Counted from the first letter of the stretch, positions 18,534 to 28,187 are shown. The stretch is 28,187 bases of DNA from Prevotellaceae bacterium (GCA_031255055.1 JAIRTG010000125.1:1-28187), one strand, 5' to 3'. Notes: a model not told the origin generated them from the letters alone. Made by a program: numbers and translations.

Positions 18534-18629
18534 GGATAAAAATCATCAAAACTTGGATAAAAATCATCCGAACTTGGGTAAAAATCATCCGAACTTGGAT
18601 AAAAATCATCAAAATTTGGGTAAAAATCA
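18534..18629. repeat. 21-bp tandem repeat, 4 units plus a partial unit (GG(A/G)TAAAAATCATC(A/C)(A/G)AA(C/T)TT)
   Basis: Units start at 18534, 18555, 18576, 18597, 18618. Confidence 0.92.
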
Positions 18630-18968
18630 GGGTAGGTACCCCAAAATTTAAGGGTAGGTACCCTAAAATTTAGGCTTGGTACCCCAAAATTTAAGGGTAT
18701 GTACCCTAAAAATCAGGCTTGGTACCCCAAAATTTAAGGGTAGGTACCCTAAAATTTAGGCTTGTTACCCCAAAATTTAAGGGTATGTACCCTAAAAATC
18801 AGGCTTGGTACCCCAAAATTTAAGGGTATGTACCCTAAAAATCAGGGTAGGTACCCCAAAATTTAAGGGTATGTACCCTTAAAAATCAAGGTATGTACCC
18901 TAAAAATCAGGCTTGGTACCCCAAATTTAAGGGTATGTACCCTAAAAATCAGGCTTGGTACCCCAAAA
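18630..18968. repeat. 16-unit 21/22-bp tandem array with a 43-bp higher-order period and a GTAC core
   Basis: Mostly alternating GGCTTGGTACCCCAAAATTTAA (22) and GGGTA(T/G)GTACCCTAAAA(ATC/TTT)A (21); GTAC at 18636, 18658, 18679, 18701, 18722 ... 18958 (one unit TTAC). Confidence 0.93.
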
Positions 18969-19052
18969 ACACGAATCATTAAACACAAATCATTGTTTAG
19001 AAAGCGATTTTAGCGCCATAAAAACAGCGAAGCCATCATCATTTTGCGAACC

Positions 19053-19084
19053 ATTGCAAAATAATAAAAATAAATGTACATTTG
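19053..19084 (+). promoter_or_regulatory. Bacteroidota promoter (-33 ATTG / -7 TACATTTG) for the T9SS cargo gene
   Basis: TACATTTG at 19077-19084, (A)TTG at 19053-19056, 20-nt spacer. Confidence 0.55.
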
Positions 19085-19467
19085 CAGAATCTCTACAAAA
19101 CGAAACAAACGTGAACCGATGACATACTATCATCAAAACAAAGATATAATTATTACGAAAAGCGCAACAGGCTATTTTGTCGTGTCAAATATCCTGTCAG
19201 ACACACAGATATACAGATACAAGTATACACTTGTCCTGCGTACGCACGCACGAAACACCCACACAGCGTCGTCCGCAGGCCATCTGCATAAAGACACACA
19301 CGCATTTGAGAACAAGACACCACTTTTAGCCCCCAAGCACATCAACAAAAAAAACGCGCTTCACCACACACTACAAGCGACTTCAAGTAACCCGACATAC
19401 ATCAAAACTTTCAACATAAATCATCAAAATAATTTGACAGATAACTAAAAACTAAATATATACGATT

Positions 19468-22400
19468 ATGAAAAGAATATTTTTATTATTAACAATCATC
19501 GTCTGCTTTTTTACGATCAACAAAGCAACGGCGCAACAACCGATAACGAGCGGTACAACCGGAGATTGTCAGTGGATGATCAACCTTCTTCCCACCGGTG
19601 ACTATCAGCTTGAAATCGTCTCCCTTTATGGGATCGAAGTCCTGATGGCGGATTACAATGATACCGACAACCTCGCCCCATGGTACACTTACAAGGGCTA
19701 CATTAAATCCCTGAAAATGTCCAACGTAATGAACATTGGAAATTTTGCTTTTGCCAATTGCACCGGCTTAACATCGGTCACCATCCCCCCTTCGGTGATA
19801 ACGATTGGAGAGCATGCTTTTGCCAATTGCACCGGCTTAGGAACGCTCACATTCGGAAATCTCGGCCGTTCGATAGCGATCATTGGAGACAAGGCTTTTT
19901 ACAGAACCGCCTTAACGTCGGTATCGATCGCAGATGAAACAACACTTGGAAACGCGGTTTTTGCCGATTGCCCCAACTTAACGAAAATTGAAGTTCTTTC
20001 TTCCAATCCCCAATACTCCGTTCAGGACGGCATACTGTTTAATAAACTAAAGGATACCCTGTTGCAATATCCCGCCGGTAAAACGACCACCGGTTATACC
20101 ATTCCCCTCAACGTGGCGACAATTGCAAACAGCGCTTTTGAAGGTAGCCGTCATTTAACATCGATCACGCTCGACGGAGTAATGACCATTGAAGAGGCGG
20201 CTTTTCGCAATTGCGACCACCTTACATCGCTCATCATCCCCGCTTTGGTAACGACGATTGGAGATCATGCTTTTGAAAATTGCTCCGACATAAAATCGAT
20301 AACCCTCAAGCCGACAATTCCTCCGGAGCTAGGTGTGGATGCTTTCAAGAATGTGTCTGCTGACGTGTTTGTTCACTGCAACACGGAATTCACCTATAAA
20401 GCAGCTCCGGGATGGAACAACCTCGGCGACAACCTCCCCTACATTGCGGATCCCTTCTATAAGATTACATTGAAAAGTTTCAACGACGACAATATGGAAT
20501 ATGGAAGAGTATTCGTGACATCAAGAGAGTACATCTGTTTGACCGCTCAGATCACCATTAAGGCAGAACCCAACGAGGGTTATGAATTTGCCGGGTGGAC
20601 AGACGACCTAACGGGGAGCGCGGAACGCACAGTGACGATCTCCGATAATGCGGTTTATCAGGCCATTTTTGTTAAGAAGAAGTATCTCGTAACGATAGCT
20701 TCAGCCAATACCGACATGGGACTCGTTGAAATTAAAGTCGGAGAAACCACATATCCTTCTTCCGGTAATGGTAGCGACTATGAGCAGGTATCTTTTGACA
20801 ATGGTACAGAAGTGACTGTCAGAGCAATAGCGAGATCGGGTTATAACTTTTTGTATTGGAACGACGGGAAAGACAAGCGCAACGATAAGGCAAATCCGCG
20901 CACCTTCACCATCACCAATGAGGATCTGAGTTTTATAGCCAACTTTGCGGATGGCGTTTATGTAATATCGGCATCTCAAGAGCTTTCGGGTCAGAACGAC
21001 TGGGGAACCGCTACCGTTGACGGAGTAGATGAAAAGAGTTATCGTTATGAGGAGAAAGCTACCCTTGAGGCGTTCCCCGCCTGGGACAAACTGTTTGTTG
21101 ATTGGGATGACGGCTCGCCGTATAATCCGCATGAAGTGACGGTCACAAGATCGCACCACTATACCGCCAATTTTGAACACCGCCGCTTTAAGATAAGGCT
21201 CAAGCTGAAAGAGGGTTGCGAGGGCATGGGAACGTTCTCCTCTTATAGTAATTCTTACGAGACAGACACAGACGGGGCGTATGTGTTTGTTTATTCGAGC
21301 GAAAGTTTTGGGTTTGAGGCGACAGCCACGGAAGGTAGTCGCTTTGTAAGATGGATAGAAATTGATGAGATACCTGCGCTGGCAGGACACGAATCATTCA
21401 AAGGCAAATCCGGGGATTCCGCATTAGAGAACATTCCTATGGATTCGATACTATTTGCGACATATCCGACGCTGACTTTTACGGCCGAGTTTCAGTCGGA
21501 TCACAATGTATACACCTACCAATTGAAAGGGCAAGAGGATCGGGGAGACGTTACGGTTATGAACAAAGAGACGGGAAAAGAACAAAATATCTTTGTACAC
21601 GGTGGGACGGCTCTAATTTTAGCGAAGCCCTCCGGCGGTTATAAGTTTATGCGATGGAATGACGGTAATCCGGGCGGCGTTCCTCCGCACGATCTGGGCA
21701 TTCAGCGCGATGTTATAGTCACGCGGGATACGTCTTTTCTTGCCCGCTTTGCGGCAGAGAACGCAGAACTCCATTGGCTGGAGTTCACGCCGAAGATTGT
21801 CGCTGGGGGAATCTATAGCACAGGTGGGGGAACCTTTAGAGGTGCAAATGGGGATATTACGGATCCGGAGGATATATATTGCGGTACGGGAATGTATGCG
21901 GAAGGGGAAGAGTTTTGGATTTTAGCAAACCCCGACCAAGGTAATAAATTTGTGCGATGGAACGAAGACGGCAATCTAGAAGAAGATCGTTATATTCGCG
22001 CGGGATACGATGACCAATGGAATAAGACGAGTAGTGCGTATTATACGGCCATATTTGTGGAGAACAATGTTAGTACCTGTATGATAAAGACCCCGACGAA
22101 GAAAATAGGGAACACGGATGAACTGGAATGGGGAACGATTACCGGCGGCGGACGGTATGCGGTGGGTGAGACAGTTAAGCTGGAGGCAAAGCCCGTCTAT
22201 GCTGGTGATATCTTTGTGGGATGGGACGACGACAACGACAACAAAATCAACAACACCGACAACCCGCGTACATTTGTGATTAGCGCTGACATGGGGGGAA
22301 AGGAAAAAACGTATACGGCCGTGTTTGCCAATCAGATTCGCGTAGCGCTCTATCCGGGGGATTTTGCTACCGGCAAATATTGTCACCAAGAGGATGAATA

Positions 22401-27618: not shown

Positions 27619-27763
27619 TAAGACAGTGTTTATAGTGATTCGTGTTTAGTGATTAGTGGTTAAATGGTGATTAAATAGTGATGCGTGTTTAGTGATTCGT
27701 GATGAAATAGTGATTCGTGATTTGTGTTTAATGATTAGCAAGTTCGCCGTGTTTGACAATTCT

Positions 27764-27941
27764 TCACGAATCACGAATCGTTCGTCACGAATCGTTCGTC
27801 ACGAATCACTGTGTTTGACAATTTATCACGAATCACGAATCGTTCGTCACGAATCACGAATCGTTCGTCACGAATCACGAATCGTTCGTCACGAATCACG
27901 AATCGTTCGTCACGAATCACGAATCGTTCGTCACGAATCAC
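27764..27941. repeat. Heptamer-built 21-bp tandem repeat (TCACGAA TCACGAA TCGTTCG)
   Basis: Five perfect units at 27826-27930 plus a partial unit; one full, one 14-bp and one partial unit at 27764-27809. Confidence 0.95.
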
Positions 27942-27962
27942 TAACCACTCATCACTGTCTTT

Positions 27963-28049
27963 CGGGGCGTTGCGGGGCAGAGCCCCGCAGAGGGGGTAGC
28001 GGAAGACCGCGTAGCGGGCTGAAGCGAGGGGGAGACTTCCCCCCCCTAC
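27963..28049 (-). repeat. REP-like element, copy D (GTAG head), inverted partner of copy C
   Basis: Reverse complement reads GTAG-G(n)AAGTCTCCCCCTCGCTTCAGCCCGCTACGCGGTCTTCCGCTACCCCCTCTGCGGGGCTCTGCCCCGCAACGCCCCG. Confidence 0.9.
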
Positions 28050-28068
28050 TTATTTTTCTCTTTCTTCA

Positions 28069-28187
28069 AGGATTTTTAGCAAATGAACGAGGATTTTTAG
28101 CAAATGAACGAAGATTTTTAGCAAATGAACGAGGATTTTTAGCAAATGAACGAGGATTTTTAGCAAATGAACGAGGATTTTTAGCAA
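28069..28187. repeat. 21-bp tandem repeat AGGATTTTTAGCAAATGAACG, at least 5.7 units, truncated by the window end
   Basis: Units start at 28069, 28090, 28111 (one substitution), 28132, 28153, 28174. Confidence 0.95.

Follow-up and report, generated by a model that had tools for sequence, protein, structure and literature searches.

Introduction

What gives tandem repeats of different sequence the same unit length? The question is raised by a 28,187-nt stretch of DNA from a Prevotellaceae bacterium (GCA_031255055.1, JAIRTG010000125.1:1-28187; hereafter the window), in which four tandem arrays, A to D, lie next to copies of a dispersed, GC-rich, 'REP-like' element (REP, repetitive extragenic palindrome), referred to below as the core. 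An initial annotation had assigned periods of 21, 21/22, 21 and 21 nt to these arrays, had placed each of them within or beside a pair of the element, and had considered the element as a possible driver of the 21-nt step. The four periods were recovered with Tandem Repeats Finder (TRF) and core copies do adjoin all four arrays, whereas the comparison of genomes speaks against the driving role: arrays occur in a genome in which the core was not found, the core loci sampled in another genome are free of arrays, and in the MAG under study only about one quarter of the cores in the main subfamilies have an array close by. The arrays are best regarded, with more confidence than doubt but well short of certainty, as non-coding minisatellites of the 'constant repeat size, variable sequence' class, which would grow in place inside composite foldback islands and would not be generated by the core. 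Taken by itself, the conclusion that the core element is not what makes the arrays is probably correct.

The source of the DNA is a termite-gut metagenome, and the metagenome-assembled genome (MAG) comprises 2.12 Mb in 250 contigs, with a completeness of 82% and a CheckM-type contamination of 4.4%; the window is its longest contig (C99). Arrays were called with TRF on the window and on the whole MAG, and their units were grouped into families by circular and reverse-complement identity. For perfect arrays, copy numbers in such a short-read MAG are unreliable.

A Shared Unit Length in Unrelated Repeat Families

Across the whole MAG, TRF returned 260 arrays of period 7, 73 of period 14, 80 of period 21 and 15 of period 42, compared to 5, 13, 22 and 4 arrays at the flanking periods of 20, 22, 23 and 25 nt, respectively. 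Among the non-heptamer families, 21 have units of 21 nt, four of 22 nt, 11 of 23 nt and four of 24 nt, and all other lengths between 15 and 30 nt together account for 11 families. Of the 51 families in the 15-30-nt range, 40 thus have units of 21-24 nt, most often of 21 nt and next of 23 nt, a second mode, and this excess over a flat spectrum (P = 1.8e-15 for 21-24 nt) extends to the genome the 21-nt preference that the initial annotation had noticed in the window. The best circular or reverse-complement identities among the 21 families of 21 nt are centred on 9-10 of 21 positions, and about 5% of the pairs reach 13 or more; identities at this chance level indicate that the families are unrelated in sequence. 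The period lock spans about 40 such sequence-unrelated families.

The arrays, 54 of which have at least four copies in 2.1 Mb, occupy non-coding segments, and the open frames that run across them are made by the arrays themselves. No CRISPR-type spacers are present, as the units are contiguous in the window arrays and in the C141 lattice described below. Two features that might have been common to all units were rejected. A hairpin is not present in every unit, since 13 of the 40 unit families have a hairpin or palindrome beyond that of shuffled sequences (P = 0.002, with a mean z of -0.88; often a 12-nt palindrome with a 9-nt spacer), and arrays A and D have none. Likewise, A-tract phasing is not a general rule, as A-tracts occur in 12 of 42 families.

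Expansion in Place and a Common Register

Copies of unit A are found at three paralogous modules, namely one copy at C189:5718, two at C108:1542 and 4.6 in the window, and this series at the same junction shows expansion in place by whole units. Repeat units are nearly confined to tandem runs, and the few isolated copies lie mostly at array edges. A core subfamily with the tail TCCCGATT (13 copies) is accompanied by one 22-mer family, so that some array-plus-core modules were dispersed together.

On contig C141, a single register runs through 36 consecutive units of 21 nt, among which are at least five types and both orientations. In this register, GAGGA is in phase in 19 of 19 cases and TCCTC in 14 of 14, offset by 7, and the orientation switches at the palindrome GAGGA-NN-TCCTC. 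A single lattice shared by several brick types in both orientations is seen not only there but also at C206, C37 and C201. The C141 pattern fits unit-step slippage together with template switching, or inversion, at short palindromes, and orientation switching at such sites would provide a mechanical origin for palindromic units. A 21-nt register that survives changes of unit type and of orientation is a pattern that any mechanism must reproduce.

Islands Bounded by Inverted Cores

The 'REP-like' element is an 87-nt, GC-rich, multi-hairpin core with 316 full copies genome-wide, the consensus of which has a defined polarity, running from a head of (AGAAAG)n through the core and AAGACAGTG to a tail of (TAGTGAT)n. 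In Logan contigs of the source run, depth is about 5,000-6,500 on cores and 15-20 on unique DNA, and words of the core are about 300 times as deep as unique DNA, in keeping with roughly 300 core copies; array-length variants were not seen in the same contigs. Of the 500 contig ends, 182 have a core within 300 nt. Neighbouring cores in '+-' order (22 pairs, 17 of them less than 1 kb apart) are separated by a median of 521 nt and have their tails facing inward, whereas '-+' neighbours are kilobases apart with genes between them, which argues that the real unit is an island bounded by inverted cores. In 20 complete islands, a TAGTGAT array comes next to each core and, via a small conserved turn, folds back on an array of ATCACTA, and between the two foldbacks there is often a 21-24-nt array.

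The heptamer foldback looks like a module with a defined loop. Its turn motif, GCGGATTCGC or GCAAGTTCGCC followed by ATG, was observed at positions 27733-27763 of the window, at C110:6272-6295 and 6488-6510, and at C2:13285-13305. A further level of organization, namely a nested MITE (miniature inverted-repeat transposable element) with an inner inverted repeat around each array, was considered and rejected, as it applies to one family only (C2, C83) and three heptamer-related cases out of 35. On the head side, the hexamer run and the first ~47 nt of the core form a unit that is itself repeated in tandem, in up to 2.8 copies of 74-76 nt, for example at C110:6594-6805, at C157:8230-8427 and in the first 230 nt of C108 in reverse view, and this duplication accounts for about 50 partial 'half-core' matches genome-wide. 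Searches for the identity of the element gave little: Rfam returned no family at gathering score in the window and chance-level matches only in 27400-28187, a literature search for the core motif found nothing relevant, and the core-tail junction had no match in a metagenome scan.

The arrays are associated with the core throughout the MAG, as the initial annotation had described for the window, so that both genome-wide checks it had proposed, on period and on position, came out positive. When arrays were randomly assigned positions within non-coding segments of sufficient length (1000 permutations, cut-off 600 nt), 36.2 ± 4.2 of the 75 non-heptamer 21-24-nt arrays were expected within 600 nt of a core, while 56 are observed, a number reached in 0 of 1000 permutations. 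Of these core-proximal arrays, 53 lie on the tail side and three on the head side; 34 have units of 21 nt, seven of 22 nt, 10 of 23 nt and five of 24 nt, and for units of 15-20 nt and 25-40 nt the corresponding numbers are two and zero. Heptamer-class arrays lie within the same distance of a core in 183 of 210 cases. Among the cores of the two main tail subfamilies, those with TAAGACAG and AAAGACAG, about 70% have heptamer arrays, and about one quarter have an array of at least 15 nt within 450 nt.

Arrays and Core in Other Genomes

The core was not found in 40 relatives. One genome of the same family but of another genus, G001 (complete, 3.74 Mb), nevertheless has repeat islands of the same kind. 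In the 1.2-Mb sample of this genome that was compared, the core motif is absent and the base periods are 7 (83 arrays), 8 (51), 21 (10), 42 (2) and 63 (4), with four arrays in total at flanking periods of 16-20 nt and three at 22-24 nt (21-nt excess, P = 2e-6). The arrays of G001 are non-coding, and in one 21-nt array a founder motif, which is single-copy in neighbouring 131-nt repeats, is expanded 11.7-fold. Intergenic islands dense with heptamer and octamer arrays, including AGTGATT x 10.6, were noted in the same genome at L039:900-2900, L043 and L047. It also has a CRISPR-like array (L095:749-3803), unrelated to the period-locked arrays, with a ~29-nt repeat starting ATTTCAATTCCTTGTGG and ~35-nt spacers, to which TRF assigns a period of 63-65, and which hence inflates the count of arrays near 63 nt. 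The period-locked pattern was not seen in the relatives G011 and G038.

Conversely, matches to the core motif are found in MAGs of Treponema, other Spirochaetaceae, Fibrobacter, 'Myxococcales' and Proteobacteria from termite gut, rumen and horse faeces. The copies share the conserved blocks GGGGGAAGTCTCCCCCTCGCT and CCGCTACCCCCTCTGCGGGGC...GCCCCGCAACGCCCC, with variable hairpins between them (window 27535-27628; L009-L035, L126-L155), and judged by these blocks the GC-rich core is a cross-phylum family. The motif is matched 151 times in G324, a termite-gut spirochaete MAG, of which 21 core loci (53 kb) were compared; these contain no 7-nt array and no 21-nt array of at least 2.5 copies. Arrays without the core in the G001 sample and the core without arrays in the G324 sample indicate that core and arrays are separable. 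By parting the arrays from the adjoining element, this two-genome comparison takes away an attractive mechanism, and a cause at the level of the lineage is left to be sought. As a separate observation, the core-motif loci retrieved from other phyla contain only three long arrays (at least four copies, unit of at least 15 nt; L016, L020, L023), all of period 21 and counted irrespective of coding status.

Candidate genes were also considered. In the MAG, which is 82% complete and whose contigs break at repeats, there is no match to RVT_1, to Prim-Pol or to Y1_Tnp (PF01797), the HUH transposase domain of RAYT genes, and the only transposase trace found is a fragment at a contig end. Y1_Tnp is present in both the array-rich G001 and the array-poor G011, hence Y1 does not track the arrays. 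The co-occurrence of reverse transcriptase, HUH or primase-polymerase genes that the initial annotation had envisaged is therefore not seen in this material. Loss of mismatch repair was rejected as well, since MutS_I and MutL_C occur in each of the five genomes tested, array-rich and array-poor alike. Two MutS_I-bearing genes were noted in the MAG (C12:3411-3746 and C168:1399-1731, in open frames of 871 and 591 aa), and this pair may reflect a paralogue, a strain mixture or contamination.

The Arrays of the Window

By its gene content the genome belongs to Bacteroidota, with an FtsL_2 domain and a sorting domain of the type IX secretion system (T9SS). The arrays have mraZ, a T9SS leucine-rich-repeat (LRR) protein gene and priA as neighbours, arrays A and B being located between mraZ and a small open reading frame (ORF), and arrays C and D beyond priA. 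The repeat features are listed in Table 1.

Table 1. Positions of tandem arrays and core copies in the window, in nucleotides from its first base.
Feature	Position	Strand	Structure and context	Basis of call
Array A	18534-18629		21 nt x 4.6, 89% matches, unit GGATAAAAATCATCAAAACTT	TRF
Array B	18621-18969		Period 43 = 21 + 22, 8.1 copies	TRF and start-to-start spacing alternating 21/22
Array C	27826-27941		21 nt x 5.5, 100% matches	TRF
Array D	28069-28187		21 nt x 5.7 or more, runs off the contig end	TRF
Short fifth array	24378-24428		21 nt x 2.2, TAGTGAT-type heptamers, tail side of core copy 2	TRF
Heptamer-family remnant closing the array A/B block	18967-18994		14 nt x 2, AAACAC/AATCAT type
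Tail-side heptamer arrays	27632-27807		TAGTGAT variants, then TCACGAA/TCGTTCG 14-mers; turn motif GCAAGTTCGCC between the orientations
Core copy 1	18360-18448	+	Hexamer-like purine head 18341-18359; tail right, towards arrays A/B
Core copy 2	24680-24774	-	Inverted partner of copy 1; repeat-search match 24680-24768	Repeat search
Core copy 3	27535-27628	+	Hexamer head AGAATG/AGAAAG 27500-27534; tail right
Core copy 4	27953-28046	-	Hexamer head 28047-28068; inverted partner of copy 3, arms 324 nt apart

The four core copies form two inverted pairs in the repeat search. The first pair (18360-24768; 6.2 kb) encloses arrays A and B, a 124-aa ORF and the gene for a 1635-aa T9SS leucine-rich-repeat surface protein, and only two of the 22 '+-' pairs in the MAG are as widely spaced. 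Arrays A and B are separated from the tail of copy 1 by 86-173 nt and array C sits between copies 3 and 4. Array D, which lies 23 nt outside the head of copy 4, is among the three core-proximal arrays, out of 56, that have a head-side position, and its island may be one that lies past the contig end. The short fifth array at 24378-24428 was missing from the list in the initial annotation.

Array A has neither a hairpin nor heptamer substructure. The subunits of array B, with a mean of 21.5 nt, each have a GGTACC-centred palindrome and an A-tract, and the family also forms a 22-nt x 23.7 array at C108:1-515 and occurs as units at C54. Array C is a higher-order heptamer unit of the form TCACGAA TCACGAA TCGTTCG, and its shift-7 self-identity of 0.52 confirms the 3 x 7-mer structure given earlier; heptamer substructure is absent from arrays A, B and D. 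Array D lacks a hairpin, and its unit family recurs at C141, C206, C37 and C201. The sequence TAAAAATC, which had been reported as common to three of the four arrays, is indeed present in A, B and D, and is found in no other of the 42 unit families genome-wide. The junction from array A to array B recurs at C189, there with a single copy of unit A, and the two arrays are one system. A shared unit ancestry of all window arrays was rejected, as only A and B are convincingly related: the match of the reverse complement of unit D to unit A at 13 of 21 positions had been counted correctly, but is marginal, with P = 0.043 against shuffles before correction for multiple tests.

Origin of the Arrays and of Their Unit Length

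In the reading favoured here, an island consists of two inverted 87-nt cores, the heads of which, with (AGAAAG)n, point outward, and the tails of which point inward, (TAGTGAT)n folding on (ATCACTA)n, with the 21-24-nt arrays in between. The arrays would grow by replication slippage or unequal exchange, template switching at palindromes would add to their growth, and the core would be a co-resident or boundary element of the islands, as suggested by the arrays without a core in G001 and the 21 sampled core loci without arrays in G324. Several points weigh against this reading. The association with the core exceeds that expected from long non-coding segments, hence a local effect of the core or the foldback, such as fork stalling, is possible in this genome, and the samples from G001 (1.2 Mb) and G324 (21 loci), which are not close kin of the MAG, show that core and arrays are separable, but leave room for a relation between them in this genome. 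Slippage and template switching are deduced from array anatomy, and unit-step growth over time from a single short-read MAG, in which the copy numbers of perfect arrays are unreliable. Moreover, a smooth slippage model alone does not predict the sharp cut-off between 20 and 21 nt. As to what sets the unit length, the leading guess, and a tentative one, is a filter tied to two helical turns, whereby arrays would persist depending on their shape or on a protein. The second guess, possible but more doubtful, is a mutational ruler within the machinery of slippage or repair.

That the REP-like core itself creates the 21-nt arrays, by HUH-type nick repair, slippage at hairpin-stalled forks or templated addition of 21 nt, agrees with the strong co-localisation and polarity (56 of 75 arrays within 600 nt, tail:head 53:3) and with the position of all four window arrays beside cores, yet arrays exist in the core-free G001, the 21 sampled loci of G324, with its 151 motif matches, have no such arrays, only about one quarter of the cores in the two main tail subfamilies have an array of at least 15 nt within 450 nt, and neither the search for Y1_Tnp, RVT_1 and Prim-Pol in the 82%-complete MAG nor the presence of Y1_Tnp in G001 and G011 alike lends it an enzyme; it is considered very unlikely. 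Even less credence is given to the idea that the units are tiny mobile elements, comparable to the small dispersed repeats (SDR) of Nostocaceae, which would have inserted again and again, next to one another and in both orientations, in DNA rich in heptamers. The size range is the same, a third of the families have a hairpin, the context is one of heptamers, and mixed brick types and orientations do share one lattice at C141, C206, C37 and C201; however, the units occur almost only in tandem with few isolated copies, there is no reverse transcriptase match in the MAG, and the way unit A has expanded at a fixed junction resembles local amplification. A broader proposal, for which some chance is allowed although it is doubtful, is that a dedicated, horizontally spreading, length-measuring process, either a two-turn polymerising protein or a replication or repair enzyme that measures off 21 nt, makes or keeps 21-23-nt arrays in unrelated phyla that share a habitat, and that the core, which gut communities also share across phyla, would be part of the same mobile system in some hosts.

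Selection would enter if the arrays were functional lattices, offering sites for a nucleoid or regulatory protein that polymerises in two-turn steps, or templates for small RNAs, with slippage supplying the raw material only. The equivalence of 21 nt with two turns, the mean of 21.5 nt in array B, the hairpins or palindromes beyond shuffles in 13 of 40 families, the palindrome-preserving double changes between related units and the rarity of indels (0.48%, compared to 8.3% mismatches in the TRF alignments, a ratio biased by TRF scoring) are in line with such a role, which is also raised in PMC8161180. The reader of about 40 unrelated units would, on the other hand, have to be blind to sequence, the second mode at 23 nt (11 families) is not two turns, A-tracts are limited to 12 of 42 families, arrays A and D have no hairpin, and palindromes can arise mechanically at orientation-switch junctions, so that functional lattices appear unlikely, albeit worth keeping in view. 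Descent of the 21-nt units from heptamer triplets, i.e., 3 x 7 higher-order repeats that diverged and were later amplified, is exactly what array C displays, and seven heptamer-based 21-nt loci, the embedding of the arrays among heptamer arrays, and the strict series of 21, 42 and 63 nt in G001 point the same way. Against this, shift-7 self-similarity is absent from the 21 non-heptamer 21-nt families (0.245, with 0.254 expected; z = -0.45), 19 families have units of 22-24 nt, higher-order heptamer units drop off as 14 >> 21 > 28, and G001 has 51 octamer arrays but one 24-nt array compared to ten 21-nt arrays, which together make this origin improbable.

Relation to Known Repeat Systems

The arrays are members of a known, unexplained bacterial repeat class. 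The initial annotation knew of no described system that links REP-like elements to the birth of 21-bp minisatellites, and this holds only in part, as constant-size repeats of 20-23 nt (PMC8161180) and the MITE BrickBuilt with its 23-nt minisatellite (PMC4596501) have been described. Bacterial tandem repeats of constant size and variable sequence have units of 20-21 nt ('20-23 nt') or 52 nt, and the coincidence with two helical turns has been noted and a role for nucleoid proteins or small RNAs suggested (Subirana and Messeguer, 2020, as summarised in PMC8161180). The likeness extends to many non-coding arrays per genome with one unit length and unrelated sequences, to species-specific families, to a patchy taxonomy and to an enigmatic role. 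The MAG, too, has one dominant length in the range of 20-23 nt, unrelated units, a non-coding location, at least four repeats, and many arrays. The same source places the class mainly in Bacillus, Paenibacillus, Cyanobacteria and Actinobacteria, whereas the present host belongs to Bacteroidota, and no mention was found in it of a link to a dispersed GC-rich element, heptamer foldbacks or a 23-nt mode, all of which are present here. The MAG, in which about 75 arrays from some 40 unit families are packed into 2.1 Mb, is an unusually dense case, and its anatomy is clear. A cultivable array-bearing relative, from the lineage of G001 with its complete genome, would make the question bench-testable.

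BrickBuilt of Porphyromonas gingivalis is an intergenic MITE with a spacer-less 23-nt minisatellite, and has a single unit family, 19 copies in all and terminal repeats of 12 nt that are of IS5 type; P. gingivalis also has 22-nt and 41-nt tandem repeats (Klein et al., 2015; PMC4596501). Both systems belong to Bacteroidales and have a multi-copy non-autonomous element, inverted ends around a minisatellite and a copy number that varies between loci. The 20 complete islands have this type of architecture, a likeness of kind and not of sequence. In contrast to BrickBuilt, about 40 unit families, 316 GC-rich cores of 87 nt and heptamer foldbacks are found here, there is no sequence similarity, and no exact copy of the four published IS5-type terminal repeats (GAGACCTTTGCA and variants) is present in the MAG.

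Intergenic heptamer arrays have been reported in Beggiatoaceae, Cyanobacteria and some Bacteroidetes (MacGregor, 2015; PMC4679880). The MAG shares with the short tandemly repeated repetitive (STRR) sequences a dense population of intergenic heptamer arrays (260 of period 7), although its heptamer is TAGTGAT, and neither TAACTGA nor one of the STRR words. The SDR of Nostocaceae in the work of Elhai et al. from 2008 are said to be hairpin-bearing repeats of 21-27 nt that occur as single insertions, including nested ones. This SDR paper is cited in PMC3116915 and PMC5861425. The STRR and SDR together resemble the present system in their dense, often inverted intergenic heptamer arrays, in hairpin-bearing units of 21-27 nt and in their patchy taxonomy. 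The SDR are dispersed single insertions, whereas the 21-24-nt units are tandem here, with few isolated copies.

REP, BIME and REPIN sequences, which are accompanied by RAYT transposases, form repeated extragenic inverted doublets and clusters that include tandem reiterations (PMC3116915, PMC3733652). Inverted doublets are found here as well (22 '+-' pairs), but the core has 87 nt and at least three hairpins, compared to the single 20-40-nt palindrome of a REP, the bases before the G-run of the core vary (TTAG, GTAG, GGTG) instead of forming the REP tag GTAG/CGTC, and tandem arrays fill the interior of the doublet over hundreds of nt. In plasmid iterons and in centromere-like arrays, too, direct repeats are spaced ~21-22 bp apart on one helix face, some with palindromic units; they occur as one or few arrays per replicon, beside a rep or par gene, and have a single shared unit. 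Here, by contrast, 75 arrays with about 40 unrelated units are chromosomal and lie beside housekeeping genes. Compared to these systems, what is new is that the arrays sit in islands flanked by a cross-phylum GC-rich core and by heptamer foldbacks, and that their units form a mosaic in which the register is preserved.

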